64,000 nucleotides of DNA, taken from Enterobacteria phage ATK47. Both the position numbers and the translations under genes were made by a program. The notes beneath the pieces are model-generated. The model saw nothing but the letters and a program-made list of their open reading frames with translations, was not told the origin of the DNA and searched no databases. The stretch's first letter is position 1; each line of letters starts with the position of its first letter. Location: sequence record NC_055708.1, one strand, 5' to 3'. Positions 33,206 through 59,226 of this stretch are shown one piece after another.

Positions 33206-33235
33206 GTTTACATAAGGATGATGGCGTGTTACTAT
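33206..33235 (+). promoter_or_regulatory. T4-type early promoter within palindrome
   Basis: GTTTAC, 18 nt, TACTAT; GGATGAT/ATCATCC inverted repeat flanks the -10. Confidence 0.6.
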
Positions 33236-33269
33236 CATCCTATCAAATAAACGACCTCAAGGAAATAAA

Positions 33270-33557
33270 ATGAAAACCTATAAAGAATTTATATCACCTG
33301 ATGCTAACGTTTCTACTCTGACCGAAGCGACCCTTACTTCCGAAGTTATTAAAGCAAATAAAGGACGTGAGGGTAAACCAATGATTAGTCTGGTTGACGG
33401 CGAAGAAGTAAAAGGTACTGTTTACTTAGGGGATGGATGGTCTGCTAAGAAAGATGGCGCTACTATTGTTATCTCTCCGGCTGAAGAGACTGCACTGTTT
33501 AAAGCTAAGCATATTTCTGTAGCTCAGCTTAAAATTATTGCAAAAACCCTTCTGTAA
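33270..33557 (+). CDS. internal protein with capsid-targeting leader (ipI position)
   Basis: 95 aa; N-terminus MKTYKEFI matches T4 internal-protein CTS consensus MKTYQEFIAE; adjacent to 57B as T4 ipI. Confidence 0.75.
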   Translation: MKTYKEFISPDANVSTLTEATLTSEVIKANKGREGKPMISLVDGEEVKGTVYLGDGWSAKKDGATIVISPAEETALFKAKHISVAQLKIIAKTLL

Positions 33558-33560
33558 GTA

Positions 33561-33590
33561 GTTTACATGCTGATAGGATTATGGTATAGT
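33561..33590 (+). promoter_or_regulatory. T4-type early promoter within palindrome
   Basis: GTTTAC, 18 nt, TATAGT; ATAGGA...TCCTAT inverted repeat. Confidence 0.6.
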
Positions 33591-33620
33591 AGTCCTATCA
33601 AAATTAATTAGGAAAATAAA

Positions 33621-33929
33621 ATGAAAACTTTCAAAGAATTTATCAATGAAGCGGCTGCACCAAAGACATTCGTTATTAATACTCAAGCGAGTCTTGATGA
33701 TGAGTACGCGGATGCAATTCTGAGGTCACTTGCTAAGAACGGCGTTGAAGTATCTGCATCAGACTTTAAGAAAGGGTCTTCCGAGATGTTTATTTCTATA
33801 GTTAAAGGATCTAAAGCTAAGATTAAATCATCATTCGGAGTTGCTCGTACCGATCAAATCGACAGTCATGACTTTAAACAAACCGGCGTTAAACGGCAGA
33901 ATACGATTGCATCACGCGGAATAAAATAG
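33621..33929 (+). CDS. internal protein-like (CTS leader)
   Basis: 102 aa; N-terminus MKTFKEFINE with I-N-E site resembling prohead protease motif. Confidence 0.7.
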   Translation: MKTFKEFINEAAAPKTFVINTQASLDDEYADAILRSLAKNGVEVSASDFKKGSSEMFISIVKGSKAKIKSSFGVARTDQIDSHDFKQTGVKRQNTIASRGIK

Positions 33930-33940
33930 TTTATAAAACC

Positions 33941-33970
33941 GTTTACTTTTAGATAGGGTAGTGATACTAT
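33941..33970 (+). promoter_or_regulatory. T4-type early promoter within palindrome
   Basis: GTTTAC, 18 nt, TG-a-TACTAT; ATAGGGTA...TACCCTAT inverted repeat. Confidence 0.6.
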
Positions 33971-33998
33971 TACCCTATCAACTACTGAGGAGAATAAA

Positions 33999-34184
33999 AT
34001 GAAACGCGCTGAACTGATTCGTAATGTTGCTGTAGTAATTGCTTCAATGGCTTTTAGTTTTTCGATGTTTGTAGGATTCATTTGTGGACTACTGACAACA
34101 ACTGAAAATTCTATCTCATTGGTAGTAGCATTTCTAATCGGTTTAATCGCTATTGTTATGGATAAAATTGCAAAAGGTGAGTAA
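33999..34184 (+). CDS. small membrane protein (61 aa, two hydrophobic helices)
   Basis: SD GAGGAGA; hydrophobic segments VAVVIASMAFSFSMFVGFICGLL and LVVAFLIGLIAIV. Confidence 0.55.
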   Translation: MKRAELIRNVAVVIASMAFSFSMFVGFICGLLTTTENSISLVVAFLIGLIAIVMDKIAKGE

Positions 34185-34185
34185 A

Positions 34186-34548
34186 ATGAAATATCACGTA
34201 TATGCGGATTTTGAAGCAAATCCTTCTAAAGACCCGGATTGTCGTTTATTCCGTAATCCGTTTGATTCAGCAGCTCAAGCATGGGCCTGGATTAAAACTT
34301 GTACTCCTTCTTACACTTTCTTTGAAGTGGTAGATGATAATGGTGTTTTGCATCCAGAACCTACAGAAACTATTAATTTCCTTCTGTTTGCTGGTTATGA
34401 CTGTTATCCTCTTGGTGGTATTGACGACCTTGTTGCTACAGGAAAAACTGTTGAAGCTCTTCGCGAAATTTATAAAAACGCAGAAGAAAATTTTGACTGG
34501 TATCATATTGTTGATGCTCATACCTTTGAAGTGGTGGAACATTCATGA
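34186..34548 (+). CDS. hypothetical protein (120 aa)
   Basis: ATG 34186 with SD AGGTGAG; ORF in operon context. Confidence 0.55.
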   Translation: MKYHVYADFEANPSKDPDCRLFRNPFDSAAQAWAWIKTCTPSYTFFEVVDDNGVLHPEPTETINFLLFAGYDCYPLGGIDDLVATGKTVEALREIYKNAEENFDWYHIVDAHTFEVVEHS

Positions 34549-34835
34549 TTCTTTATGCTAAGGTAAAATCCGTTGAGAATGGATATGAAAGCGATCAACG
34601 TGCAGCTAAAGCACTAGTCGATTACTATGGTATTTTGACCCACTTTGAAGTTGAAAAGGTTTACGTCGACCGTTCATCTTCACAGGTTAAATTACTTTGG
34701 GAAGACCGCAAATTTAATAGTGTGAACTTTGATTTCTTTATTGAAACAGAAAAAGGTCCTCTTGAATATGATATTTTCAAGAATCCTTTAAATCTTGAAT
34801 GTATTGAGTATAATTACATTAATATGGTACGGTGA
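34545..34835 (+). CDS. hypothetical protein (96 aa)
   Basis: Overlapping ATGA junction with upstream gene. Confidence 0.55.
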   Translation: MILYAKVKSVENGYESDQRAAKALVDYYGILTHFEVEKVYVDRSSSQVKLLWEDRKFNSVNFDFFIETEKGPLEYDIFKNPLNLECIEYNYINMVR

Positions 34836-34839
34836 GTAA

Positions 34840-35355
34840 ATGAATATTTGTTTAGGCAGTACAATTCCTAAGGGTTATGTAATTGATGTCACTACCTATG
34901 AAAATGACGGGGACAACTATAAAACCAAAACATTGTTTGAAGTGGAAGAGCATGAGCTCCAACAGTTTAAATATCTCTTGAAGAAATTTAAGAGTCGTCA
35001 TTCCAGCACTAAAGCTGAACGTTACTGTGGTAATACACCATTCAGTGACTGCTCGCTTATTATCTACGAATATCTGGTTGAAGGGCTGTTCTCAGACCAA
35101 CTCCGACCAGAATTTATTAAAAAGGTCTTTGGCATCGAAGTAGACCTTGGTGATAAATCTGAAGAAGACGAAGCCCGCGTATTCGACCTGTTCTTTGTGA
35201 AAGGCGATGAGATATCTCAAGGACTTATTGATATTCTTGGCTATGCTTCTGAATACTATGATTACGATTTCTTGCGTGTAGTTGAACGTGTCGAATTTGC
35301 TTATATTGAAGAAGAAATTGTTTTGCCAACTGTTAAAATGATTGATTTGCTTTAA
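34840..35355 (+). CDS. hypothetical protein (171 aa)
   Basis: SD GGTGAG; acidic ORF. Confidence 0.55.
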   Translation: MNICLGSTIPKGYVIDVTTYENDGDNYKTKTLFEVEEHELQQFKYLLKKFKSRHSSTKAERYCGNTPFSDCSLIIYEYLVEGLFSDQLRPEFIKKVFGIEVDLGDKSEEDEARVFDLFFVKGDEISQGLIDILGYASEYYDYDFLRVVERVEFAYIEEEIVLPTVKMIDLL

Positions 35356-35434
35356 GAATTATGTGTTATTATTAATTCATACCCTCTATTACCAAAGGTG
35401 CTCTAAAGTGCCTTTCATAATAGAAAGTTATTAA

Positions 35435-35509
35435 GGCCCTGTAGCTCAATGGGAGAGCTGTCAGCTCATAACTGATAGGTAGCTGGATCGAAACCAGCCA
35501 GGGTCACCA
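35435..35509 (+). tRNA. tRNA, anticodon CAT (Met, or Ile2 if lysidine-modified as in T4 tRNA-Ile)
   Basis: Cloverleaf folded by hand: acceptor GGCCCTG/CAGGGTC, D-stem GCTC/GAGC, anticodon loop CTCATAA, T-stem GCTGG/CCAGC, encoded CCA. Confidence 0.8.
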
Positions 35510-35512
35510 ATT

Positions 35513-35589
<77 letters not shown>

Positions 35590-35607
35590 ACTTCAAGTGA
35601 GGAAAAT

Positions 35608-35952
35608 ATGAAAGGTAATATTTATCTGGTAGTTCATGATTTAACGTTTTATTTTAACGAACAGGATACAGTTATTTCCGACCGGTTGATTAATTCATTA
35701 TATCAACACGCTGATTACGTTTATTTCCAAAATGAATTTGGCCATTGGAAGTTTCTTAAAAACCGTTCCGGGTTAACTAGTTTTGAATACTTTGACCGTA
35801 AAGACCTTTTAAACGAAATCCCATTGCAACATCGGTTCCAGAAACGCGAATCACTATACTATTGTCGCCATATACCAAATGCTGAATGTGTTTATGAAGC
35901 GATTAATCTATGGCGTCGGCGTCGAGAGCAAATTGATGATATGCCAAAATAA
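35608..35952 (+). CDS. hypothetical protein (114 aa) downstream of tRNAs
   Basis: SD GAGGAAA 4 nt from tRNA end, ATG 35608; could alternatively be non-coding. Confidence 0.45.
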   Translation: MKGNIYLVVHDLTFYFNEQDTVISDRLINSLYQHADYVYFQNEFGHWKFLKNRSGLTSFEYFDRKDLLNEIPLQHRFQKRESLYYCRHIPNAECVYEAINLWRRRREQIDDMPK

Positions 35953-36264
35953 GAAGCCGGGTCGCTACCGGCAAGTCGTCGGACTGATGTTCCCTGAGTA
36001 AGGACTGGTCTTAATAAATCTTTATGATTTGTTAATATCCCCTTACATCACAGCAGAAACGGCGCACAAAATTATCGATTCGAGGAAATATCTTTGCCGT
36101 AATCCGAGTAGCGTTTTTGACGGAACGTTCGGATATGGTCGAGATATGGCCTTTTAAAAATATTGAGTAGCGTCAACTGCTTAATAACCAGGTTCAAATC
36201 CCGGCGTTTCGTACAAACACTTGCCTTAGCAGGTGGAACCCCGACAAGGTTGCCGCAAGGCTTA
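35953..36264 (+). ncRNA. candidate stable structured RNA (position analogous to T4 species 1/2 RNAs)
   Basis: About 310 nt without ORF, GC-balanced with several local inverted repeats and a T-loop-like GGTTCAAATCC, ending at a terminator. Confidence 0.3.
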
Positions 36265-36290
36265 GCCCCTTCCGAAAGGTTGGGGCTTTT
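36265..36290 (+). terminator. rho-independent terminator
   Basis: GCCCC...GGGGC stem with GAAA loop followed by TTTT. Confidence 0.65.
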
Positions 36291-36335
36291 GGCATAATAA
36301 TAAATAGATAAGTTAATTAACTTAGGAAAAGCAAC

Positions 36336-36800
36336 ATGAAATCATACGCTGAATTTTTGACTGAACAATCTAGTTCAGATGTAAAAGCCGCTGCGATTGC
36401 AGCAATTCAAGCAGGTAAATATTCTTACAAAGACGCCTCTGATGAAGAACGTTTCCGTTTTATTAGAGATTTTAAAGCCGAAGGTTTTACTAATGCTAAT
36501 ACTGTTAGCCGAGTTTTTAAAAGCCTAGCTGCATCAGGTGAATTGTTCCAGAAAGCTACAGGTAAAGCACCTGCGCCAAAAACAGACCCTAAAGCAGCTC
36601 AAGAAAAAAATATCGCCAAAGGAATTATTTCTAAGTATGAAGCAATTCTTAAAGAGCTTTTAGTAATCAAAACAGAAGGCCAGAAACTGGCACGAGCACA
36701 TAGCTTCAAAGATAATCCTCACGCTCATAGCCTTGAGTATGTTGAAGATATCCAAAAACTTATTAAAGACCGTATCTGGTCTGCTAAACAAATTAAATAA
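36336..36800 (+). CDS. internal protein-like (CTS leader)
   Basis: 154 aa; N-terminus MKSYAEFLTE matches CTS pattern. Confidence 0.7.
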   Translation: MKSYAEFLTEQSSSDVKAAAIAAIQAGKYSYKDASDEERFRFIRDFKAEGFTNANTVSRVFKSLAASGELFQKATGKAPAPKTDPKAAQEKNIAKGIISKYEAILKELLVIKTEGQKLARAHSFKDNPHAHSLEYVEDIQKLIKDRIWSAKQIK

Positions 36801-36806
36801 TAGAAT

Positions 36807-36835
36807 GCCCCTTCCTTATGGTTGGGGCCTTTTGG
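36807..36835 (+). terminator. rho-independent terminator (repeat copy 2)
   Basis: GCCCCTTCCTTATGGTTGGGGC followed by CTTTTGG. Confidence 0.65.
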
Positions 36836-36866
36836 TATCTAGGGCATAAAAATATTTCATAAAGAT

Positions 36867-36895
36867 GTTTACTTCTTCCCTAGATGTGTTACTAT
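36867..36895 (+). promoter_or_regulatory. T4-type early promoter
   Basis: GTTTAC, 17 nt, TG-t-TACTAT. Confidence 0.6.
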
Positions 36896-36923
36896 AGATT
36901 TATCAACCACAGAGGAAAATATT

Positions 36924-37427
36924 ATGAGTCTTTACACTGAACTGAATAAAAAATCTGAAGAATCTGCTGAAACTATTTTTAAAAACGTGCAAAAGCGTAT
37001 TTTGGAAAAGATGTACGATGCAGCATCTAAAGGTGAAAAATCTTGCCGGTTTCCGATGAGGTGTTCTTCTGATTTATGCGCAAATACTATTGAATGGCTG
37101 GAAAGTGAAGGTCTTACGGTAGAGAAAAACCCGGCGACTTCTATTGACAGTGAATCATATATTAGTATTTCTTGGGATAAATCAAGGGTAGAAGAGAAAG
37201 ATGGTGATTGGGTTGTAGATGTTAAAACTTCTGATGGTGGACGTTCTGTTGAAGTTTCAGCTGTAGTTAAAGGTACCCACGGACAAAGGACTTGGGGTTG
37301 GGGTGGTGAAGAAAAAGAAATTGTTCTTAGTGTGATTGCAAGGTCTACTAGCAATAAAATTGCCCAGAGCATCATCTATGCTGCATGTATCGAAGCTGGA
37401 AAAATTTGCAAAATTAAAAATAAATGA
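36924..37427 (+). CDS. hypothetical protein (167 aa)
   Basis: SD GAGGAAA; ORF. Confidence 0.6.
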   Translation: MSLYTELNKKSEESAETIFKNVQKRILEKMYDAASKGEKSCRFPMRCSSDLCANTIEWLESEGLTVEKNPATSIDSESYISISWDKSRVEEKDGDWVVDVKTSDGGRSVEVSAVVKGTHGQRTWGWGGEEKEIVLSVIARSTSNKIAQSIIYAACIEAGKICKIKNK

Positions 37428-37456
37428 TGTACAAACACCATGGACGGTGTTACTAT
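37427..37456 (+). promoter_or_regulatory. T4-type early promoter (variant -35 ATGTAC)
   Basis: ATGTAC, 18 nt, TG-t-TACTAT; overlaps stop of upstream gene. Confidence 0.5.
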
Positions 37457-37485
37457 AGACCTATCAAATCAAGAGGAGAAACAAA

Positions 37486-37713
37486 ATGGCTAAAGTTAGT
37501 ATTGATGTCGTTGATTATGAATACACAGAAGAAGTTATTCGCAACCGTCACCCTGAAGTTCGTATCGATTCAGTACAAGATTCCAAGTTCTGGACAACTG
37601 AGCTTAATCTGAGTGGTCCTTATGAAGCTGTTAAGAAGTTCATGGTTGAAGAATACTGCGAAGGAATGCACCCGGAAGACGCCAAGTTTTATGTCAATTT
37701 GATTAAAAAATAA
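37486..37713 (+). CDS. hypothetical protein (75 aa)
   Basis: SD GAGGAGA. Confidence 0.6.
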   Translation: MAKVSIDVVDYEYTEEVIRNRHPEVRIDSVQDSKFWTTELNLSGPYEAVKKFMVEEYCEGMHPEDAKFYVNLIKK

Positions 37714-37742
37714 TTTACAAACTCTTGAGAGCAGAGTATAAT
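37713..37742 (+). promoter_or_regulatory. early promoter within palindrome
   Basis: ATTTAC, 18 nt, TATAAT; GAGAGC...GCTCTC inverted repeat flanks the -10. Confidence 0.55.
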
Positions 37743-37783
37743 GCTCTCATTGGATAATAAACCACCAATTGAAAGGTAATAAT

Positions 37784-38377
37784 ATGAACACACTGAAGAA
37801 ACTTGTTGAATTCATCCGCACTAAACTGGGTACTGCTATGGCTAAAAATCTGACTGTCGAAGAACAGTATAACGCAGCTGCAGATAAGTTGATTACCCAA
37901 ATCAAAGAACTAAAAACGGCTTCTGTTAAATCTATTAATGAAGAAAAACGTATTCGCGAACTTGTTAATGAAAAGAACAAGCAAGCCGCTTCTAAGGAAC
38001 GTGAAATTCGTAAGCTCCTGGCTGAAGGACAAGATGTTACCATGCATGCTAAGCTTGGTCTTCTGTATCGTCGAACTGCCGAACAACTTAATACAAAAGC
38101 TGACGGGTATGCCGCTATGCGAATTGAAATTGCTCGTAAGGTGGTTGAACTTGATGATGCTCGTCAGAACCTGGCAATCAAACTCGAATACATTCGTGAA
38201 ACTCGAGCAGCCAATGCCCTTGGTATCTCTACGGCTGATGATGTAATTGAAATCGCTGCACTGACTAAGGTTGATATCGAAGACACTCTGACTCGTGTTG
38301 AAACGTTCAATGGCACTCCAGCTGGTGTCGAAACCACTTCTGCTGATGTACAAGAATATATTAACTCTTTGAAATAA
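37784..38377 (+). CDS. coiled-coil protein (197 aa)
   Basis: ATG 37784 with SD; heptad-rich helical sequence. Confidence 0.6.
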
Positions 38378-38385
38378 AATAATAC

Positions 38386-38407
38386 GGAGGACTCCGGTCC
38401 TCCTTTT
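38386..38407 (+). terminator. rho-independent terminator
   Basis: GGAGGAC-TCCG-GTCCTCC followed by TTTT. Confidence 0.7.
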
Positions 38408-38426
38408 GGATAATAAAGGAGTTAAC

Positions 38427-39029
38427 ATGCGAAACCAAAATAATGATATTGACTCAATGTTCGAAGAGTTCCGAGATAAGGTAAATCCACCTACGTCCTT
38501 AGTTGATTCATTACGATATGTTGCAACCGGACGTAAATGGTACTGGTCGTCTTCTTATGAGACCACCGAGAAAACGGCTAGCCATAGCAGAAAATCTTTA
38601 TTAGCCCCAGGTATTATGATTCATGATATCGGAGCTATTGCTAAACTAGTTGCAGACCATGATATTAGATTCACTGATTTCGTTGCTCCTACGTGGTCTG
38701 TTTGTTGTTTAAACACTGAATGGGAATATATCAGCGAACGCTCTGAAGATTATTATGGTTTTAGAGATAAGCTTCTGAGGTCTAATATGTTTTATATCGA
38801 TACAGAAGTTCTAGTCGATAATAAAAAATATTACTTTACGTTAATCATCGATTCTGAAACTATGTATGAAGGCAAGCCTTTGCTTAAAAGAGTTGATGCT
38901 TTAAGTGCTATTGATGCGCTTTATGAAACTATGGTTGTTAGTCCTAATTTCACTAACAATTTAATCCTTGAGCAATTTATTATGGAATGTAGAGAATATG
39001 TCAAAGCCAACCCTATACATGCCAAGTAA
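38427..39029 (+). CDS. hypothetical protein (200 aa) with C-terminal FIMECR motif
   Basis: ATG 38427 with SD AAGGAG; C-terminus LILEQFIMECREY. Confidence 0.6.
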   Translation: MRNQNNDIDSMFEEFRDKVNPPTSLVDSLRYVATGRKWYWSSSYETTEKTASHSRKSLLAPGIMIHDIGAIAKLVADHDIRFTDFVAPTWSVCCLNTEWEYISERSEDYYGFRDKLLRSNMFYIDTEVLVDNKKYYFTLIIDSETMYEGKPLLKRVDALSAIDALYETMVVSPNFTNNLILEQFIMECREYVKANPIHAK

Positions 39030-39393
39030 GCCCTGGGCGTATGAATACAAGCGTAAATTAATCCCAAATGAAGTACTATTTGGCCCTATTTTAGCTTTAG
39101 CATTTTTAATCTTTATGATTATAGGAGCTGTTTTAGATTCTAGTGAAGTTATATCGTCTGATGCAGCATTTTCATTAATGTTCGTCGCACCACTTATTGT
39201 ACCGTTTTTATTAATGCCTATTAATTGGGCGGGATATTGGCACCAAGGCCGTCATCACAGAGCCCGATTAAGAGAATGGAAAGTTCAGTGCGCAAAAGCC
39301 CAAGCTCAGTATGATGAAGCTGTTAAAAAGTATGAATATGAAGAAGCTATGGAATTCGTTAAGGAAATAAGATGCAAAAGCCTCAACTCTTAA
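38998..39393 (+). CDS. small membrane protein (131 aa), two TM helices
   Basis: Weak RBS, overlaps upstream gene by 32 nt; hydrophobic helices; C-terminus EFVKEIRCK. Confidence 0.5.
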   Translation: MSKPTLYMPSKPWAYEYKRKLIPNEVLFGPILALAFLIFMIIGAVLDSSEVISSDAAFSLMFVAPLIVPFLLMPINWAGYWHQGRHHRARLREWKVQCAKAQAQYDEAVKKYEYEEAMEFVKEIRCKSLNS

Positions 39394-39731
39394 CCGTATG
39401 GCCTTCTCTTGGTGAGAACATTCTAATTTTTATTATGAGTATTGGCATGGGATTTGCCTTTGGATTAGTTGGATTTCTTATTGACGGCGTTGTGTTAGGA
39501 TTTATAGGGAACACTGGTGGATTCACAGACCAATGGCAGGACTTACGGTATACCCAAGCCTTTGCATCCATCGCATCATTTTGTACTGTAGTCTATTTTT
39601 ACTACGATTTTATAAACCACAACAAGAAAAATAAAAAGGTTTACGCTTCTCAAATGATTAGTTATAATGAACTCCTAGCTAGACGTGAAAATGAAACAAT
39701 CGAAAACTTTATTAAGGAATGTAGAAAATGA
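39372..39731 (+). CDS. small membrane protein (119 aa) ending ENFIKECRK
   Basis: SD AAGGAA; two hydrophobic helices; conserved C-terminal tail. Confidence 0.6.
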   Translation: MQKPQLLTVWPSLGENILIFIMSIGMGFAFGLVGFLIDGVVLGFIGNTGGFTDQWQDLRYTQAFASIASFCTVVYFYYDFINHNKKNKKVYASQMISYNELLARRENETIENFIKECRK

Positions 39732-40033
39732 GTAAGATTATTGAAATTAAAGTACCAGAGTTTAATGATGCCAAATCCGCTTCAGATGCAATTTATAAAC
39801 TTCTGAATCAAGCTGAACGTATCGAAGAAGAAGCAACAAAGATCGCAGACCAATATGCCGTATCATTTTCTGTAGGTGATTATGGTAGTGGTCGTACTTA
39901 TTATCCTAAGGGTGAAATCGTATCCCAGTGGATGAAAGATGAAATTGAAAATAATGGCGGCGATGTTAAGCGTGAAGGTAATGGATACGTTATTACTGAA
40001 GGTGCTTGGGTTTCGTCTTCTGCGTTGTGCTAA
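39728..40033 (+). CDS. tandem paralogue A (101 aa), C-terminal GAWVSSSALC
   Basis: SD AAGGAA overlapping previous stop; shares YG-x-G-x-TY and GxWVxSSxxC with next two genes. Confidence 0.65.
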   Translation: MSKIIEIKVPEFNDAKSASDAIYKLLNQAERIEEEATKIADQYAVSFSVGDYGSGRTYYPKGEIVSQWMKDEIENNGGDVKREGNGYVITEGAWVSSSALC

Positions 40034-40042
40034 GGAATCATT

Positions 40043-40315
40043 ATGTCTAAAGAACAAACCGAACTGGCTGAAGCTGTAGCAAAAATCTATGCAGCTATTG
40101 AGGCTGCCAAAGAAATTGCTGATAAACAAAACACAACATTCGACTTGTATCCAGCTTATGGTATGGGTGGAACCTATCATTCACCAGGACATCTTAAAGC
40201 CGATCTTGAACGTTGTACAAAAAACGGTTATGCCGAATGGGCTGACGTTTACCAATACGACTACAACCTGAGCCTCGAAACTGGTGGTTGGGTCGCATCT
40301 TCTCACACTTGCTAA
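40043..40315 (+). CDS. tandem paralogue B (90 aa), C-terminal GGWVASSHTC
   Basis: Junction TGCTAAGGAA-N5-ATG shared with paralogue A. Confidence 0.65.
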   Translation: MSKEQTELAEAVAKIYAAIEAAKEIADKQNTTFDLYPAYGMGGTYHSPGHLKADLERCTKNGYAEWADVYQYDYNLSLETGGWVASSHTC

Positions 40316-40324
40316 GGAAACAAT

Positions 40325-40522
40325 ATGTCTCGTGAATTAGATTGTGCTGTACGTACGGCAGTAGCTGCTCTGGAAAACCTGTTCCAAATTGCAACAGAAG
40401 AACGCGAAGAAGTTACATTATGGATTGAAGATAACGCAGGTCTGAATCTCCAGGACGCGATCTCATTATCCCACAATAGTATCACTGTTCAAGGCTGGGT
40501 ATCATCTAGTTATTCTTGCTAA
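40325..40522 (+). CDS. tandem paralogue C (65 aa), C-terminal QGWVSSSYSC
   Basis: Same junction sequence and C-terminal motif as A and B. Confidence 0.6.
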   Translation: MSRELDCAVRTAVAALENLFQIATEEREEVTLWIEDNAGLNLQDAISLSHNSITVQGWVSSSYSC

Positions 40523-40526
40523 AACA

Positions 40527-40556
40527 GTTTACAACAAGATAGGGCTATGTTATAGT
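40527..40556 (+). promoter_or_regulatory. T4-type early promoter within palindrome
   Basis: GTTTAC, 18 nt, TG-t-TATAGT; ATAGGGCTA...TAGTCCTAT inverted repeat. Confidence 0.6.
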
Positions 40557-40584
40557 AGTCCTATCAAAACAAATGGAGTCCACA

Positions 40585-40824
40585 ATGATTTATTACGAAA
40601 GTATCGGAACCAAAGTGGTTGGTAAAACCATTACTCGTGAAAAGTTTGCAAAGATATTCGATATGCGTTATAAAAAATCTGAACACAAAGGCATCCGATT
40701 CGAAGATGCGCACTGTACAATTTGCCCTTATAATGAAGACATAAACGGTACAATCGTTCCATTGGTAGAGGCTTCACATGATGACCTCTGGGATGAATAT
40801 AATATCGCATGTCGTGAAATTTAA
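40585..40824 (+). CDS. hypothetical protein (79 aa)
   Basis: ATG 40585 preceded by GGAG; His and Cys residues near the C-terminus (possible metal site). Confidence 0.5.
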   Translation: MIYYESIGTKVVGKTITREKFAKIFDMRYKKSEHKGIRFEDAHCTICPYNEDINGTIVPLVEASHDDLWDEYNIACREI

Positions 40825-40852
40825 GTTAATGAATTAATCCGAGGAAAATATT

Positions 40853-42090: not shown

Positions 42091-42120
42091 GTGTACAAAC
42101 TGATAGGACTATGTTATAGT
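42091..42120 (+). promoter_or_regulatory. T4-type early promoter within palindrome (variant -35 GTGTAC)
   Basis: GTGTAC, 18 nt, TG-t-TATAGT; ATAGGACTA...TAGTCCTAT inverted repeat. Confidence 0.6.
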
Positions 42121-42148
42121 AGTCCTATTAAAACATGAGGAGAATATT

Positions 42149-42454
42149 ATGAAATTAGGCGAAACCAACCGAATTGGTCTTTTAACAATATTTGTATCAC
42201 TTTTTTACGCAGCTCTTTCTGTTGCAGTATTACAAAAGGCTTACAGTATGGATGGTGTTCCTGGTTTTGTATTCTTATCGCCGTTTTTGCTATTCGTTGG
42301 AGCATTGTTATTATATGCCACGACTAGTTTCGACCATAACGTCTGGGTCAATTATAAATGTAAATTGTCTGAAGAAGAACACGCAGAAGCTCGTAAAAAA
42401 GCTATTGAATCTACCAATCTAGAAAATTTCATTAAAGAATGTCGAGGAAAATAA
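42149..42454 (+). CDS. small membrane protein (101 aa) ending NFIKECRGK
   Basis: SD GAGGAGA; two hydrophobic helices; conserved C-terminal tail. Confidence 0.6.
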   Translation: MKLGETNRIGLLTIFVSLFYAALSVAVLQKAYSMDGVPGFVFLSPFLLFVGALLLYATTSFDHNVWVNYKCKLSEEEHAEARKKAIESTNLENFIKECRGK

Positions 42455-51325: not shown

Positions 51326-51349
51326 CTAATATCTAACCAAGAGGTATAT

Positions 51350-51562: not shown

Positions 51563-51574
51563 CAGGAGGCCTAT

Positions 51575-51877
51575 ATGGCCTTAAGAGCGATAGCTGTCAT
51601 GGCGATGCTGGGGTTTTTTGCAGCAACAACTCCTATCGTTGGTACTGCACATATTGACCCATATTTTGATAACTTTATGGAATCAGGGATTAAAAACGTA
51701 TATACTTTGTTTGAAATTCAAAATGTCGAGAATTCTGAAAAATTCTATAAGTATATGGCAAAGCATTACAAAAATAGCCCCTGTGATGATGCATTTGAAT
51801 GTCATGAACAAGGCATAAAAACTGCCAGACAATTTGCTGAGTTCATGAAAATAAAATTAGAGCCTACATCTATCTAA
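51575..51877 (+). CDS. rI: lysis inhibition antiholin RI
   Basis: MALRAIAVMAMLGFF...DPYFDNFMESGIKNVYTLFE; close to recalled T4 RI. Confidence 0.9.
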   Translation: MALRAIAVMAMLGFFAATTPIVGTAHIDPYFDNFMESGIKNVYTLFEIQNVENSEKFYKYMAKHYKNSPCDDAFECHEQGIKTARQFAEFMKIKLEPTSI

Positions 51878-51883
51878 TTTACT

Positions 51884-51913
51884 AGCCCCTTCCTTATGGT
51901 TGGGGCTTTTTGG
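51884..51913 (+). terminator. rho-independent terminator (repeat copy 3)
   Basis: GCCCCTTCCTTATGGTTGGGGC plus TTTTTGG; identical core to 36807 copy. Confidence 0.65.
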
Positions 51914-51923
51914 CATTTAACAG

Positions 51924-51952
51924 TTTACTTCTCCTTGAGATGTGTTATAGTA
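51924..51952 (+). promoter_or_regulatory. T4-type early promoter
   Basis: GTTTAC, 17 nt, TG-t-TATAGT; TTCTCCT after -35 complementary to SD AGGAGAA. Confidence 0.6.
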
Positions 51953-51978
51953 GTCCTTACTTACTAGAGGAGAACGTT

Positions 51979-52158
51979 ATGACACGTAAAGAAAAGATTT
52001 CTAAGTTGATGTTTTTGATTGAAGAGTACGCTAATGCGGTATCTGATTGGGAAAATGCTCATGGTTGCGAAGATGGAGACATCGACATTAACAGAGCTAT
52101 GAAAAAGATGGCCGACGCTCACACCGAATTGCAAATGTATGTTAACGAGATTATGTGA
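51979..52158 (+). CDS. hypothetical protein (59 aa)
   Basis: SD GAGGAGA. Confidence 0.5.
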   Translation: MTRKEKISKLMFLIEEYANAVSDWENAHGCEDGDIDINRAMKKMADAHTELQMYVNEIM

Positions 52159-52165
52159 GGATATT

Positions 52166-52372
52166 ATGCTTTACGATTATACTGGAAAATCTGAAGACGG
52201 TGTGCTTGAACTTTTACCTGAAAGCGCTGAAGATGATGATATGGTGGCAATGTTTTGTAAAAATGGTCCTGGGGATAAGGGATGGATTTATCTTCGCCAA
52301 GAAAATGACCTAATTGTTTTAGACCCAAAACAAGTTGAAGAACTTTATCAACATTTAAAACACAATCGGTAG
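52166..52372 (+). CDS. hypothetical acidic protein (68 aa)
   Basis: ATG 52166 with SD GAGGA. Confidence 0.5.
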   Translation: MLYDYTGKSEDGVLELLPESAEDDDMVAMFCKNGPGDKGWIYLRQENDLIVLDPKQVEELYQHLKHNR

Positions 52373-52401
52373 TTTACATCTTGGTAGGACTATGTTATAG
52401 T
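52373..52401 (+). promoter_or_regulatory. T4-type early promoter within palindrome
   Basis: GTTTAC, 17 nt, TG-t-TATAGT; GGTAGGACTA...TAGTCCTACC inverted repeat. Confidence 0.6.
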
Positions 52402-52429
52402 AGTCCTACCAAAACAAACGGAGAACAAA

Positions 52430-52540
52430 ATGAAACTTTTGCTTATCGCTTATGTTGTAGTACAATACAATTATCCGATGTTTACTTATAACATGGTAAA
52501 CGGCATAGTGAATCTTATTGAAACGAGTATGGTAAAATGA
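52430..52540 (+). CDS. possible hydrophobic micro-protein (36 aa)
   Basis: ATG with SD GGAGAA right after promoter; below the 60-aa ORF track cutoff. Confidence 0.35.
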   Translation: MKLLLIAYVVVQYNYPMFTYNMVNGIVNLIETSMVK

Positions 52541-52716
52541 CCCGTGAACAAGCTAATAAATTGATGGACCTTATCCGTGACCTACGTGAAGCCGATTCAG
52601 ATTTGAATGATGTAGCTTATCACGCGGTAAATGATAACGGAGACTTTTATGAAAATCAGGTTGATGCGTGCCAGAATGCTTTGGTGAATTTTGTTGAAAC
52701 TTTAATTGGTGAATAA
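52537..52716 (+). CDS. hypothetical acidic protein (59 aa)
   Basis: ATGA overlap with previous; below ORF track cutoff. Confidence 0.4.
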   Translation: MTREQANKLMDLIRDLREADSDLNDVAYHAVNDNGDFYENQVDACQNALVNFVETLIGE

Positions 52717-52717
52717 T

Positions 52718-53248
52718 ATGAAAATTGTAATTGAAACAACCGAGTTGTTTGGTGATTTATGTATCGAAAAACGTGGTTATGCTTACGTTCTGACACAAGA
52801 AGATGATTCTGTTACTATTCTTCCTATGGAACTGGACAAGATTTTGAAACTCAATCCGCCAGGCCATGCATCTGTAATTAACATCGATGAAGACCTTCAA
52901 GTTCGTTTTTATCACGGTCTTTATAGTGGGGTTAATATCGAAACAGAAGATGAATGCCTTTCTATCAATAATTGGAAAACATTCGTCACTAAGGTGAAAG
53001 AATTAATGGAATCTGAAATAGCCAAAAAGGCCAAACTTCAATGGGCTAAATGCCGTAATGCTTTTATTACAAATCAGGACCGCCCTGACTATACAACGGT
53101 CCTAGGCGTTAATCCTTCTTATGAAGATGGCGATGTTGTAGTTATTCGTCAAATTGATGACCTTCGTCAACATATCGTTACATTAGACAAAGATGAAGCA
53201 GTTGCTCTTAAAGCTTATCTCGATTCTATTATCCCAACTTTGAAATAA
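52718..53248 (+). CDS. hypothetical protein (176 aa)
   Basis: ATG 52718 with SD GGTGA. Confidence 0.6.
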   Translation: MKIVIETTELFGDLCIEKRGYAYVLTQEDDSVTILPMELDKILKLNPPGHASVINIDEDLQVRFYHGLYSGVNIETEDECLSINNWKTFVTKVKELMESEIAKKAKLQWAKCRNAFITNQDRPDYTTVLGVNPSYEDGDVVVIRQIDDLRQHIVTLDKDEAVALKAYLDSIIPTLK

Positions 53249-55060: not shown

Positions 55061-55089
55061 GTGTACATGCTTTTAGGATATGATACTAT
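55061..55089 (+). promoter_or_regulatory. T4-type early promoter (variant -35 GTGTAC)
   Basis: GTGTAC, 17 nt, TG-a-TACTAT. Confidence 0.55.
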
Positions 55090-55127
55090 AGACCTATCGA
55101 AACGAAATGAGTAAATTGGAGAATAAA

Positions 55128-56108
55128 ATGTTCAACGTTCAAATCAAAAAAGGTATCTATCGTAATAACGAAATCTCTGGTTCTTATGTTGCCACAAAGA
55201 CATGGTTCCCGGCAAAGCTTAATCCTGAATGTTCCCACTTAGGTGATGGTAAAATTTTCGTTATGATTGATGGTTCTGAACGTGGAGTATGGGTCTTCAA
55301 ATCAGACATCGTAATGGAAGGAGTTGAGACGTCACCAGTTGCAGTTGTTGAAAGCACTGAAGATATGAAAACTCGTATCAACAAACGCTTTAAAGTAATG
55401 AACATGATGACGAATGGCATTATTGATGGCAAAATTCGTTCACTCATTATTTCAGGTGCAGCTGGTATTGGTAAGACGTATTCTCTGGATAAAGCACTTA
55501 ATAATGCTAATGATAATGGTTTCATCAAATACAAAAGCATTAATGGTAAAATCTCCGGTATTGGCCTTTACGAACAACTTTGGCTCAACCGTGATGAAGA
55601 CAGCGTTCTCTTAATCGATGACGTTGACGTATTCTCAGATATGGACATCCTGAACCTTCTTAAAGCAGCATTAGATACCGGAGATAAACGCAAAGTTTGT
55701 TGGAGCACTGCGTCATCTTATCTCGAGGATAAGGGTATTGATAAAGAATTTGAGTTTGAAGGTACTATCGTTTTCATTACAAACGTTGATATCGATAAAG
55801 AGTTAGAACGGGGTTCGAAACTTGCTCCACACCTTCAAGCTTTAGTATCTCGTTCAGTGTATCTCGACCTTGGAGTACACTCTAATGAAGAGATTATGGT
55901 TCGAGTTGAAGATGTAATATTATCTACTGATATGATGCAGAAACGTGGCTTGACTGATGCTGAAACGTATAAAGCATTGTCCTGGATGAAGGCTAATGTA
56001 TCTCGTCTTCGCAATGTATCATTACGTACGGCTCTTTATGTAGCAGATTTTATTTCAACCGATAAAGATGGTTGGGAGGAAATCTCCGAAGTAACTTTAC
56101 TGAAATAA
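55128..56108 (+). CDS. AAA+ family ATPase (326 aa)
   Basis: Walker A ISGAAGIGKT, Walker B VLLIDDVD, sensor-like FITN; start at ATG 55128 with SD GGAGA. Confidence 0.7.
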   Translation: MFNVQIKKGIYRNNEISGSYVATKTWFPAKLNPECSHLGDGKIFVMIDGSERGVWVFKSDIVMEGVETSPVAVVESTEDMKTRINKRFKVMNMMTNGIIDGKIRSLIISGAAGIGKTYSLDKALNNANDNGFIKYKSINGKISGIGLYEQLWLNRDEDSVLLIDDVDVFSDMDILNLLKAALDTGDKRKVCWSTASSYLEDKGIDKEFEFEGTIVFITNVDIDKELERGSKLAPHLQALVSRSVYLDLGVHSNEEIMVRVEDVILSTDMMQKRGLTDAETYKALSWMKANVSRLRNVSLRTALYVADFISTDKDGWEEISEVTLLK

Positions 56109-56123
56109 GCTTATAGGAAGTTC

Positions 56124-56167
56124 TGAGGTAACAAAAGCCATAAAGATGAATAATCATATGGCTTACC
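56124..56167 (+). other. long imperfect hairpin in intergenic region
   Basis: GAGGTAA/TTACCTC plus GCCATA/TATGGC arms (13 bp with 5-nt bulge) around 13-nt loop. Confidence 0.4.
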
Positions 56168-56245
56168 TCAAAGAAGGACACCAGGAACCTACTGAGGGCA
56201 TAGAAATATTTAAAATAATGATGTACAAATCAAAGAGGATATGTT

Positions 56246-56533
56246 ATGGATTTTATGCAAAAAATTAAAGCCGCAGTCGAACTCTATGCTCATCGTATGG
56301 TTAGTTCTACGATGCAATATAGCGAGGAGGTTCGCCAGGACTCTTCCTTGAAAGGAAAAACTAAAGCCTTAATTACCTTAGATCGTTTGCAAAAGAATGC
56401 CATAGAGATGCTCCAGTACGACAAGGGTGTATATAAGAAAGAACAGGAAGAGAAACTTAAATCTGAAAAATTACAAAAAATCCCGAAGTCGGTTTGGTTC
56501 AGTGGAAAAAATACCGAAAAAAGTTTCTTTTAG
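56246..56533 (+). CDS. hypothetical protein (95 aa)
   Basis: SD AGAGGA. Confidence 0.55.
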   Translation: MDFMQKIKAAVELYAHRMVSSTMQYSEEVRQDSSLKGKTKALITLDRLQKNAIEMLQYDKGVYKKEQEEKLKSEKLQKIPKSVWFSGKNTEKSFF

Positions 56534-56535
56534 TT

Positions 56536-56564
56536 GTTTACAAGGTCTATGGTTATGTTATTAT
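56536..56564 (+). promoter_or_regulatory. T4-type early promoter within palindrome
   Basis: GTTTAC, 17 nt, TG-t-TATTAT; GGTCTAT...ATAGACC inverted repeat. Confidence 0.6.
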
Positions 56565-56591
56565 AGACCTATCAACTACTGGAGGTAAAAC

Positions 56592-57119
56592 ATGAACGCT
56601 AAAGATATTTTCAACCTGGTAAATTATAACGACGGTAAATTTAAATCTGAAGCACAAAGCAAGTTCTTTAATGACGTTGCTTATGGTAACGAGATTACCG
56701 TAGATGGAGGTCAGATTTTCAAATCTCGCTGGAATTGGATTGTTATCATCGATTCAGTTGGAATTGTGGAAGTCTACAAAAACACTAACAAAAACCGTAC
56801 ATTATTCTGGTCTCGTGAAACTAACGAGCAGTACAAAAAGGATAAAGCATCTCGTTTATCCAAAGTAACCCAGGAAGATATCGAGTTTATTAAGAAAGAT
56901 ATCGAGATGTACGAAAATTTAATCGCTGAAGACCAGGCAGTACTCGATAAGTTTGATGAAATTAAAGCTTCTCGTGAAATCCCTGACTTCATGAAAGAAA
57001 CAGTAAACGAACGATACGCTCTCACTTCAGAACGTATTGCAAACTATACAAAACAGAAAGCAGAACGTATTAGTACTCTTCGGAAATTTGAAGAACGTTT
57101 AAAGACGGTTCACGCATAA
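56592..57119 (+). CDS. hypothetical protein (175 aa)
   Basis: SD GGAGGT. Confidence 0.6.
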   Translation: MNAKDIFNLVNYNDGKFKSEAQSKFFNDVAYGNEITVDGGQIFKSRWNWIVIIDSVGIVEVYKNTNKNRTLFWSRETNEQYKKDKASRLSKVTQEDIEFIKKDIEMYENLIAEDQAVLDKFDEIKASREIPDFMKETVNERYALTSERIANYTKQKAERISTLRKFEERLKTVHA

Positions 57120-57120
57120 A

Positions 57121-57146
57121 CGCTTTACCCAAGGACGGGTTATAAT
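57121..57146 (+). promoter_or_regulatory. candidate middle (MotA-box-like) promoter
   Basis: CGCTTTA (resembles MotA box TGCTTtA) 13 nt upstream of TATAAT (57141-57146). Confidence 0.35.
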
Positions 57147-57181
57147 GGTTTTGAGTTCCAATTCAATCTGAGGAAATAGTT

Positions 57182-58177
57182 ATGAGCATTACATCTGATG
57201 CGATAAAACATGAAATTAACGGTTTATGTGCTTCACAGATTAAAGTGTGGTTTAAAGACCATAATGATCGCAGAGCGCTTAATTATGAACGAATTGCTAT
57301 CCAAGTTCATCAATTACTGGTTAGTAAATTTGATTTTCATATGCCGTCTGAAATCTATACTAATCTACCGCGAGCGCTTATTAAAGCGTGTAAAGGCTAC
57401 GGAAAATCAATGGCTGACGGAATCTTCAGCGCGCTGAATAAACTTAACGTTCTGTCGATGATTAACTCTAACAATATCCTGCGTAATCTAGGACGTACTG
57501 ATTTGTTCGGTCGTGAACAGTGTAAAATGCCTTTGAAACGGATTGTTGCTCATCTTAACGAGAACCAAACACGTTTTATGGCCGTAACAGCACGTTTACA
57601 AATGGGCCTAGATCGTCAGATGAACTTTAAAACTCATCCACGTTATTCAGGTTCAACAGACTTTTATAAATGTGAGCTTCAAAAGGTTGGTGGTAAAACT
57701 GTCTTAGTAGTTCGTGTAACGTTTGAAGGACGACGTCAAGGATATTTTGACATAATCGGCTCTGGTCTTAAACATTGTGGATTTATCGACGAAGTTGATA
57801 TCAAGCGAGACGGCATTGGATACCGTATTGGGTATGTTTGTACTCTTAAAGAAGAGATTTCAGGACCAGCTCCAGGACTAAAAGACGTTAGATATAAAGA
57901 CGAGCTCGTTGAAGAAATAAAAGAAGTTGAATATGATATCAACCAAGAAGATGCTCTTAAAGACCTTATTGATGAACTGAACCAAGATGTTATTCCTGTT
58001 CAGAAATTTGAATCAAAACATGCTGAGCAAATCAAATACTTTGAAGCTTTGATTAACGAACTTAATGTAACTATTCAACAGACTGACGATGAAATCTCAC
58101 GATTAGCAGGCTTAAACGGTAAAAATAAAACAGAACGAGCTAATCTTATTCAAGTAGTAAAACTTCTTAAGGAATGA
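57182..58177 (+). CDS. hypothetical protein (331 aa) with C-terminal coiled coil; array member 1
   Basis: SD GAGGAAA; last about 60 aa heptad-rich. Confidence 0.65.
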   Translation: MSITSDAIKHEINGLCASQIKVWFKDHNDRRALNYERIAIQVHQLLVSKFDFHMPSEIYTNLPRALIKACKGYGKSMADGIFSALNKLNVLSMINSNNILRNLGRTDLFGREQCKMPLKRIVAHLNENQTRFMAVTARLQMGLDRQMNFKTHPRYSGSTDFYKCELQKVGGKTVLVVRVTFEGRRQGYFDIIGSGLKHCGFIDEVDIKRDGIGYRIGYVCTLKEEISGPAPGLKDVRYKDELVEEIKEVEYDINQEDALKDLIDELNQDVIPVQKFESKHAEQIKYFEALINELNVTIQQTDDEISRLAGLNGKNKTERANLIQVVKLLKE

Positions 58178-58206
58178 TGTACAACCAAGGATGGTTGGAG
58201 TATAAT
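58177..58206 (+). promoter_or_regulatory. early promoter (ATGTAC, 18 nt, TATAAT)
   Basis: Shares 24-nt core ACAACCAAGGAYGGTTGGAGTATAAT with promoter at 59197. Confidence 0.6.
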
Positions 58207-58232
58207 AAATTTTTCAACATGAGGAATATAAA

Positions 58233-59192
58233 ATGGCTTTTATTACACGTAGAGAACTTATCAAAGAATTTACCTCGAACGCATATACTCCAGGACCTAA
58301 TCCTATCCGTATGCCTGTAAAGACTCCTGAAGAGATTGAGGAAATCTGTTCATATTATGGGATTACTTCTCGTATGTTTACCCAATTTGAATGCGTTACT
58401 AACACACCCGTTAAAGAGTTCATTAAAAATGGTGAGTTCAGCCGTTTATTGGCCAAACAGAAACTTCGTAATTTTTGTATTGGCGGTGAAGGTCAATATT
58501 TCGCTAAGCAGTTCCGGAATAACCTTAACAATCTGATGGCCATTGCTTCTCGTATTCGTCCTCAAGCAATTAACATGAAACATTTGAAATATACTTACGA
58601 TAAGTTAGAAATCATGGTTATCAGTGAGAACGAGTTCACTCTTACGTATAAACCTAAGAATGATAACGTTGCTCGTGTATTCCACCAAGCGTTGGAAGTT
58701 TTAGGTGATAATATCCACCAGATTAAAGCAATTTATTCTCGTGAGCTTAATATTATCGACCCTATCAAGAATAAGGGCCATATCGCTATCCAGGCTCGTG
58801 TATCTATTGGTAAAAAGGTTCCTGCACCATGGTGGCACAAAGACTCTGAATATTATCAAAATCTTAAAAAGGAAAATGCAACATTTGAAGCGTCAATTAC
58901 TGCAACCCCAATTGGTAATGCTGAAGTTCTAGGTTCATATTCTACTTCGGGTAAATCAATGTTTAAAGGTTTGCCAAATGTGTGCAAACTGTCTGCAGTA
59001 AAACTAAATGTTTCTAATGACCTTCTTCCGGTCGAAGATTACCATTACAATCAAATCAAGGCCACTATGGACCAACTGTCTGTTGAACTTGACAAAGCAC
59101 AAGCTAAGCTTCGTGATGCTCAAAGTGTTGTAACGAATCTCCAGTTGCAGTACTCTAAACTTTTTAACGCAATGAATGCATTAAAATCATAA
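58233..59192 (+). CDS. hypothetical protein (319 aa) with C-terminal coiled coil; array member 2
   Basis: SD GAGGAA; C-terminal heptad-rich tail. Confidence 0.65.
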   Translation: MAFITRRELIKEFTSNAYTPGPNPIRMPVKTPEEIEEICSYYGITSRMFTQFECVTNTPVKEFIKNGEFSRLLAKQKLRNFCIGGEGQYFAKQFRNNLNNLMAIASRIRPQAINMKHLKYTYDKLEIMVISENEFTLTYKPKNDNVARVFHQALEVLGDNIHQIKAIYSRELNIIDPIKNKGHIAIQARVSIGKKVPAPWWHKDSEYYQNLKKENATFEASITATPIGNAEVLGSYSTSGKSMFKGLPNVCKLSAVKLNVSNDLLPVEDYHYNQIKATMDQLSVELDKAQAKLRDAQSVVTNLQLQYSKLFNAMNALKS

Positions 59193-59196
59193 AACG

Positions 59197-59226
59197 GTTT
59201 ACAACCAAGGACGGTTGGAGTATAAT
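59197..59226 (+). promoter_or_regulatory. early promoter (GTTTAC, 18 nt, TATAAT)
   Basis: Same conserved core as promoter at 58177. Confidence 0.6.

Follow-up and report, generated by a model that had tools for sequence, protein, structure and literature searches.

Compact cassettes in which a stem-loop overlaps an early promoter, termed promoter-early stem-loops (PeSLs), have been described in the T4-type phages RB49/phi1 (Arbiol et al. 2010, PMC2839356) and in T4/PST and KVP40/nt-1 (Comeau et al. 2014, PMC4122927). Similar elements, together with shuffling of the locus, are known from the internal-protein loci of T-even phages, for which PMC2839356 cites Repoila et al. (1994). We analysed a 64,000-nucleotide stretch of Enterobacteria phage ATK47 (NC_055708.1; hereafter the window), in which early promoters with embedded palindromes recur between positions 33206 and 59226. 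An earlier reading of this DNA (hereafter the original prediction) had called these elements PeSL-like, and that identity held: we found the components of a PeSL in the published order, namely an A/T-rich stretch, a sigma70-type early promoter, an overlapping stem-loop (mostly from -35 to -10 or over the -10), a Shine-Dalgarno sequence (SD), and a start codon. As in the described PeSLs, the elements cluster in a hyperplastic early region 5' of small open reading frames (ORFs), chimeric cassettes occur at indels between close relatives (here including the internal-head-protein gene at 33621-33929), and the -35/-10 consensus is as for T4/PST (TTTACW N17 TAYWAT). All sequence-level features of a PeSL are present, and the T-tract, our proxy for termination, is absent. 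The elements have the PeSL arrangement, which is already published; the present analysis extends it to an RB69-like coliphage and to all of the T4-like clades that were sampled.

The elements also differ from the published PeSLs in several respects. The genus concerned, Mosigvirus, lies outside the genera analysed in PMC2839356 and PMC4122927. PeSL stems in RB49/phi1 are GGGG/CCCC, whereas those in the window are A/T-rich and have their own arm families, and a figure legend for PST (PMC4122927) places the stem-loops just upstream of the promoter, whereas here they are centred on the -10. The hairpins have no T-tract, so the name "terminator" is unsupported by the sequence; they fall into two discrete classes, one of which pairs with the SD; and the palindrome does not predict which cassettes are used as breakpoints. 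The main value of the analysis is its confirmation of the PeSL arrangement in an RB69-like coliphage, and its additions (two hairpin classes, the lack of T-tracts, a trade-off with upstream terminators, a putative conserved gate at regB, and the cassette as recombination substrate) are modest.

Between 40000 and 52000 the window is 100% identical to Enterobacteria phage ATK48 (KT184310.1; Mosigvirus, RB69 group); window coordinates equal those of that record + 7496, the window beginning ahead of record base 1, as would a copy with a different permutation or a second, near-identical genome. The range 33206-59226 is the early region, from just past genes 1/57A up to the nrdC cluster, and its genes (ipI-like, tRNAs, e, denV, regB, vs, tk, rI, nrdC.x) are all on the + strand. 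The cassettes are concentrated in this hyperplastic region (33-60 kb), mostly 5' of small, mainly hypothetical ORFs.

The strict pattern GTTTAC-N18-TAnnnT had 13 matches in the window (0.91 expected), every one of them on the + strand, and none of 100 shuffled sequences reached 13; in a scan with a loose promoter pattern, + strand matches far outnumbered - strand matches. A relaxed search, in which GTGTAC, ATGTAC, and ATTTAC at the -35 and 17-nt spacers were also admitted, returned 19 candidates in 33206-59226, all on the + strand. Of these, 17 are solid, an SD and a start codon following in every case, and two are doubtful (P39639, within the 3' end of a coding sequence, and P46031, with the poor -10 TAACAT), in agreement with the "at least 16" early promoters first claimed. 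That these cassettes delimit nearly every accessory gene was not borne out: there are about 19 promoters for 69 + strand genes, and promoter-free runs exist (e.g., 42149-45115 and 48146-51877).

The aligned consensus reads A/T-rich - GTTTAC - N17/18 ending in TGn - TAcTAT - AGaCCTATCAAA - AGAGGAGAA - ATG (alignment A1: AAA..TTT.AAAAAATA-GTTTAC ... AGAGGAGAA.A.AATG), with TGn directly 5' of the -10 in 15 of the 18 aligned copies. A cassette spans about 70 bp and consists of the A/T-rich upstream stretch, GTTTAC, TGn, TAnnnT, an AGnCCT-ATCAA start region, a short A-rich leader, the SD, and ATG. The start-region motif AGnCCTATCAA had 15 matches (0.88 expected) and is present even in copies that have no 5' arm. 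A generic sigma70 scan of the window showed no enrichment (76 found, 66 expected), so the T4-type consensus alone is informative. Judged by sequence, the elements are T4-type early (host sigma70) promoters with predicted activity and start sites. They share with early promoters of T4 and RB69 the GTTTAC -35, TGn, and a -10 with A-11 and T-7 (PMC1524935, PMC2988021), as well as an A-rich upstream element, a preference for C at -3 to -1, and the occurrence of many copies 5' of novel ORFs. The catalogue of RB69 early promoters by Nolan et al. (2006, PMC1524935) mentions no palindrome, hairpin, or inverted repeat in its text, and the text of Hinton (2010, PMC2988021) mentions no stem-loop at early promoters.

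An inverted repeat of at least six perfect pairs bridging the -10 was found at 12 of the 19 promoters in the window (~60%), the other seven being promoter-only. The claim that most copies carry the -10 in an inverted repeat is correct to that extent, and in excess of controls, but does not extend to all 16 or more. Stems of at least eight perfect pairs numbered nine in the window, against 0.42 when spacers were shuffled (maximum 3 in 300 shuffles), ~0.6 at random + strand positions, and 1.1 when spacers were swapped between promoters; the shuffled-sequence control, which the original prediction had named as one of its refuting tests, was clearly exceeded (9 vs. 0.42). RNA folding gave z <= -2.6 in 11 of 22 copies, and hairpin energies ranged from -13 to -22 kcal/mol (z from -3.3 to -7.2).

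We computed promoter and hairpin statistics on 62 sequences (1.29 Mb), namely the window, 58 T4-like loci around regB and tk taken from IMG/VR, and three Mosigvirus genomes; a fourth Mosigvirus genome, APCEc01, entered the breakpoint comparisons only. The same hairpin architecture was found throughout these 62 T4-like loci. A -10-bridging stem score of at least 8 was reached by 41% of the 311 unique early promoters, compared with 3.5% at random positions, and when hairpins were sought without bias over -100 to +100, their centres clustered on the -10 (133 of 200 within -10 to +19 of the first -10 base). Among 194 non-redundant promoters, a promoter's own spacer and downstream sequence paired over at least 8 bp in 35%, compared with 3.4% for swapped pairs, and none of 200 permutations reached 35%. 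Because the swap control preserves composition and promoter consensus, its deficit means that the complementarity is specific to each promoter's own arms. The swap test, the peak of hairpin centres on the -10, and many compensatory arm variants at regB (below) indicate that the hairpins are under selection and not incidental, as had been suggested. The accompanying claim that arms differ between copies held only in part: six copies have the common arms GATAGGnCT/AGnCCTATC (symmetry centre -12/-11), and three have the common anti-SD/SD arms TTC(T/C)TCC.../...GGAGGAA or ...AGGAGAA.

In every hairpin the 5' arm falls within the spacer and begins near -30 to -26, and the position of the 3' arm defines two classes. 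In class A (P33206, P33561, P33941, P37713, P40527, P41822, P42091, P52372, and P56536), the spacer pairs with the promoter's own -6 to +3 stretch and the -10 lies in the loop. In class B, represented in the window by P45117 (denV), P48089 (regB), and P51923, the 5' arm occupies -30 to -17 and the 3' arm lies 15-20 nt past the predicted start (+1, 7 nt after the -10), where it includes the SD of the driven gene. The symmetry centre varies from -11 to -15 and is at about +1 in class B. Across the sample, the 3' ends of 128 strong hairpins were bimodal (+1 to +8 and +15 to +20), and the SD was inside the hairpin in 43 of the 128. Orthologous promoters may differ in class, P56536 of the window being class A and its T4-type orthologue class B.

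The presence of an embedded hairpin is strongly tied to gene spacing. The distance from the upstream stop codon to the -35 had a median of 2 nt (interquartile range 0-4) at promoters with an embedded hairpin and 40 nt at those without (P = 1.4e-7). Furthermore, a separate hairpin upstream of the -35 was found at 27 of 85 promoters without an embedded hairpin, 17 of these 27 having a T-tract, but at only 6 of 76 promoters with one (P = 1.7e-4). Spacing and trade-off together make the embedded hairpin look like a compact end-of-cistron substitute where there is no intergenic room. The predicted start lies 3' of the 5' arm, so RNA from the promoter itself cannot form the hairpin and only RNA initiated upstream can; the promoter's own RNA is predicted to begin AUCAA... 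and to be open. We therefore lean towards the reading that the hairpin forms in the RNA of read-through transcripts and insulates each cassette, in class B also masking the ribosome binding site (RBS). Its site of action would be the 3' end of the preceding cistron, where it would attenuate transcription and/or impede 3' decay; if the stop codon of that cistron directly adjoins the -35, the embedded hairpin would take the place of a separate terminator-type hairpin between the cistrons.

Of the competing explanations, the one that fares best, though we regard it as unlikely, is that the embedded stem-loops are efficient transcription terminators and the cassettes true promoter-terminator units, as PeSLs were first described. 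The stem-loop of a phi1 PeSL cut downstream lacZ as much as rrnB T1 did (PMC2839356). The embedded hairpins resemble intrinsic terminators in being stable hairpins at a cistron end, and their mutual exclusion with upstream T-tract hairpins suggests equivalent roles. Yet a T-tract follows none of the 128 strong hairpins, which are flanked on their 3' side by the conserved A-rich leader ATCAAAAC, so they are not canonical intrinsic terminators; their stems are A/T-rich (A/U-rich as RNA) instead of the G/C runs of RB49/phi1, and the loops of class B (17-32 nt) are longer than those of terminators. No promoter hairpin falls on any of the terminator-like sites listed for 33000-52999. T4-type early genes are, moreover, also expressed via read-through (PMC2988021). 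In annotation, such hairpins should not be called terminators.

Class B adds a more specific proposal to the read-through hairpin, to which we give slightly less than even weight: the spacer would serve as an anti-SD strand, such that translation of regB, denV, and others, and cleavage of their GGAG by RegB, may be limited to RNA from their own early promoter, with embedded hairpins replacing terminators at abutting genes. In read-through RNA both the RBS and the RegB target GGAG would be masked, and regB, denV, and similar genes would be expressed solely from their own early promoter. The regB promoter illustrates the arrangement. P48089 (48089..48148, +) pairs 48095-48108 (TTCTCCTCTAGTTG) with 48126-48139 (CAACTAGAGGAGAA), the latter containing the SD GGAG (-21.6 kcal/mol, z -4.75); the palindrome first quoted for 48099-48135 belongs to it, just as those quoted for 42103-42128 and 52383-52410 were confirmed as P42091 and P52372. 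We compared 35 distinct sequences upstream of regB, from phages with RegB identities of 39-98%, and most kept the stem. The anti-SD/SD core is flanked by clade-specific inner pairs that are complementary throughout (CTAGTTG/CAACTAG, CTTGACTG/CAGTTAAG, CTTTATG/CATAAAG, GTAAGT/ACTTAC, TTTAGT/ACTAAA, GTAG/CTAC, ATTTG/CAAAT, and CTTG/CAAG), the stem being kept through at least eight inner-arm sequences across Tevenvirinae genera. Some clades have a class A stem at regB in place of class B. When 13 regB promoters were aligned with MAFFT and folded with RNAalifold, no pairs resulted, the stems being in different registers; we relied instead on per-sequence stems and the swap test.

The section of the T4 review on regB regulation gives the early promoter and self-cleavage at the SD (PMC3014915), and neither that section nor the one on RBS structure mentions a hairpin at regB; RNA structure is reported there to protect GGAG from RegB. 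A class B hairpin at regB suggests an extra layer of control on an enzyme already known as tightly regulated. The nearest parallels are the T4 hairpins with an internal promoter that mask the RBS of e, soc, 49, and I-TevI (McPheeters et al. 1986 and others, via PMC3014915); regB and denV are absent from the RBS-masking examples in the relevant part of that review. In both systems the SD lies in a stable helix whose 5' strand is upstream of the promoter's predicted start, so that long transcripts are masked and promoter-proximal transcripts open (a prediction in the case of class B). The internal promoter is late (TATAAATA) in the T4 genes, where it delays expression, whereas it is early (GTTTAC-N17/18-TAnnnT) here, and the predicted effect of class B is the opposite one, expression being confined to the gene's own early burst. 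If true, class B would form an "early-only gate" that mirrors the late-only one of gene e.

Gene e (lysozyme) of the window has the classic T4 arrangement, which is well studied in T4: in its leader (44320-44350, +), a hairpin AAUACCUCC...GGAGGUAUU masks the SD (-16.3 kcal/mol, z -5.4) and carries a late-promoter-like TATAAA in the loop. Its stability is similar to that of the promoter hairpins. The ATK48 record labels it "putative terminator".

Several observations weigh against a read-through RNA hairpin that insulates each cassette. Internal G.T pairs outnumbered A.C pairs 22:8 (P = 0.016), but in a hand count that leaves out pairs touching the -10 hexamer bases the ratio drops to 14:8, which is not significant; we take the excess as no more than suggestive. 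The + strand fold is more stable than the - strand fold also in promoters that have no hairpin, which leaves room for a DNA-level role for class A, although we consider such a role unlikely. In class A, some 10 nt separate the hairpin from the SD and no T-tract follows, which leaves these hairpins unaccounted for by either RBS masking or canonical termination. Roughly 40% of the promoters do not have a hairpin, including some (P37427, P58177, and P59197) with an abutting stop codon. Finally, every functional step, from promoter activity and start sites to the role of the hairpin in RNA, is inferred. Strand asymmetry of folding energy, which we had considered as evidence for RNA, was set aside, being equally true without a hairpin.

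Translational coupling, in which a ribosome ending at the abutting stop codon opens the hairpin and (in class B) frees the SD, so that translation of read-through RNA depends on the upstream gene, seems improbable. It would fit the stop codons 0-4 nt from the -35 at hairpin promoters, the 5' arms that start ~6-14 nt past the stop, and the SD in class B arms. A terminating ribosome is, however, expected to unwind only ~5-9 nt past the stop and would reach 0-3 bp of stems of 8-14 bp; with no SD in class A, at most a third of the cases would be explained.

A marginally weaker candidate still is that the palindromes act as duplex DNA, either as operators bound by a dimeric protein of the phage or the host or as cruciforms that alter promoter melting, e.g., for early shut-off. 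Palindromes with 8-12 bp arms and 6-12 nt loops do not extrude readily, which counts against cruciforms. The six window copies with common arms centred on -12/-11 are what an operator might look like, and the wobble-pair asymmetry is not decisive. On the other hand, arms differ and co-vary between promoters and genera with no single recognition sequence, the symmetry centre shifts as described above, the pairing involves the SD, a signal read in RNA, in one third of the hairpins, and the dependence on stop-codon distance and on upstream terminators is unexpected for a promoter operator. The mechanism of early-promoter shut-off, which such operators might supply, is unknown (PMC2988021, PMC3014915). 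Least credible of all is that the palindromes have no function and reflect chance, consensus composition, or by-products of recombination or templated (quasi-palindrome) mutation: the ~40% of promoters that lack one and the several inner pairs that use conserved bases (G/T-rich spacer end vs. T-rich -10) are compatible with it, but the 10-fold deficit in swaps that keep composition and consensus, the sharply fixed hairpin position, the orthologous promoters that keep a stem with unrelated arms across genera, and the tie to gene spacing count against it.

Apart from any role of the hairpin in RNA, near-identical cassettes may act as short patches of homology between which phage recombination deletes, inserts, and swaps genes. 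We compared the window with seven Mosigvirus relatives and found four clean promoter-to-promoter hybrids at indels (33604-33988, 37463-37492, 41829-42090, and 55080-55104). The internal-protein (IP) gene at 33621-33929, between P33561 and P33941, is absent in relatives L019 and L020 and replaced by another gene in FP43 (L018), P33941 being the right joint of this indel. P37427 is a hybrid joint where L018, L019, and L020 have an extra small gene and a second promoter. In relative L004, the gene at 41890-42090 is deleted (deletion 41829-42090) between P41822 as left joint and P42091 as right joint, and P55061 is a hybrid of the two promoters that stand on either side of an extra gene in L004. 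The sites of crossover were the -35, the -10/discriminator, and the leader, which indicates homologous exchange within a repeated cassette and not cutting at a fixed site.

Pooled over 10 clades, indel boundaries were found at 35 of 72 promoter junctions (49%) and 98 of 391 other junctions (25%; odds ratio 2.8, P = 8e-5). The window alone speaks less clearly for cassettes as joints: 9 of 19 promoter junctions and 13 of 49 others were indel boundaries, which is not significant (P = 0.09), and the row for the window stayed near this result when APCEc01 was added to its clade in the pooled test. Moreover, 74% of junction breakpoints were away from promoters. Palindrome-specific recombination was rejected, breakpoints occurring at 16 of 41 promoters with a hairpin and 17 of 43 without. 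The idea that the elements are recombination joints, with breakpoints against related genomes coinciding with palindromes, survives at the level of the cassette but not of the palindrome: the recombination substrate is, from these comparisons, the repeated promoter cassette. Short ORFs between two cassettes may be treated as mobile units in annotation. Genes are also gained and lost at plain gene junctions, as at a 61-aa ORF (50547-50732, +; phrog_653, function unknown), where every Mosigvirus relative compared has 3 bp in place of the segment 50544-50728 and no promoter was found at either boundary.

The individual cassettes, all on the + strand, are as follows. P33206 (33206..33272; -35 GTTTAC at 33206-33211, -10 TACTAT at 33230-33235) lies upstream of the ipI-like gene and has class A arms at 33215-33222 (AGGATGAT) and 33234-33241 (ATCATCCT; z -2.8). 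P33561 (33561..33623), class A, would drive the internal-head-protein cassette at 33621-33929 (phrog_2667, E = 4e-41); its arms at 33571-33581 (TGATAGGATTA) and 33590-33600 (TAGTCCTATCA) include one U.G pair (z -4.7). The class A arms of P33941 (33941..34001) are at 33952-33960 (GATAGGGTA) and 33971-33979 (TACCCTATC; -16.4 kcal/mol, z -4.5). No hairpin bridges the -10 of P36867 (36867..36926; z 0.1), whose upstream stop codon is 66 nt off and which marks the right edge of a replaced segment (36291-36860), or that of P37427 (ATGTAC; 37427..37488), which has only a small repeat within the spacer. P37713 (ATTTAC, TATAAT; 37713..37786) is class A, with arms at 37726-37733 (TGAGAGCA) and 37742-37749 (TGCTCTCA; -13.8 kcal/mol, z -3.3) that are unrelated to the arms of other copies. 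The doubtful P39639 (39639..39730) has good hexamers and no hairpin, is inside the 3' end of an e.3-like ORF, and coincides with the right edge of a 250-bp difference from L004.

Three further class A copies follow: P40527 (40527..40587), with arms at 40538-40547 (GATAGGGCTA) and 40556-40565 (TAGTCCTATC) and one G.U pair (z -3.4); P41822 (41822..41892), with arms at 41829-41839 and 41847-41857 around the core AGGTCT/AGACCT (z -2.6); and P42091 (GTGTAC; 42091..42151), with arms at 42103-42111 (ATAGGACTA) and 42120-42128 (TAGTCCTAT; -15.5 kcal/mol, z -5.6). In the class B cassette P45117 (45117..45176) at denV, the spacer arm at 45123-45132 (TTCCTCCAAG) pairs with an SD-containing arm at 45161-45170 (CTTGGAGGAA; -19.1 kcal/mol, z -4.8), and P51923 (51923..51981) is a weaker class B, pairing TTCTCCT at 51929-51935 with AGGAGAA, the SD, at 51968-51974 (z -1.9). 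P52372 (52372..52432), class A, has arms at 52381-52392 (TTGGTAGGACTA) and 52401-52412 (TAGTCCTACCAA; -20.6 kcal/mol, z -7.2), and so has P56536 (56536..56594), at 56543-56550 (AGGTCTAT) and 56563-56570 (ATAGACCT; -13.4 kcal/mol, z -4.4). P55061 (GTGTAC; 55061..55130) is a solid promoter with no bridging hairpin. The same applies to P58177 (ATGTAC, TATAAT; 58177..58235), where only a small within-spacer repeat (CCAAGGATGGTTGG) was found, and to P59197 (GTTTAC, TATAAT; 59197..59257), whose spacer is nearly identical to that of P58177.

The doubtful P46031 (46031..46135; -10 TAACAT, z -0.3) also has no hairpin. It is the only promoter match in an unusually long (~200 nt) G+C-rich non-coding stretch (45925-46135, +) that follows the ORF downstream of denV and that matched nothing at the Rfam gathering score; to its left, the segment 45626-45993 is replaced or expanded in several relatives. 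Two tRNAs (35435-35586) were the sole Rfam matches in the window, and the small stable RNA rnaC, annotated by the ATK48 record at window 36075-36213 (+), had no Rfam match. Product names in KT184310.1 at window ~55100-61000 and 51350-51562 look transferred from neighbouring genes: nine consecutive nrdC.x ORFs and nrdC are all named "thioredoxin", and rI.1 bears a RegB note. Such names, seemingly copied from neighbours, should not serve as evidence of function.

Good early-promoter matches without a hairpin also occur within coding sequence, at gene 3' ends or inside genes (39639-39668, 60177-60206, and 61897-61926, +). A further full cassette, without a bridging hairpin, is present at window 75-136 (+; GTTTAC-N18-TACTAT-AGACTTATCAAAAC, SD, ATG), far from the early cluster and adjoining a region of mainly - strand genes.

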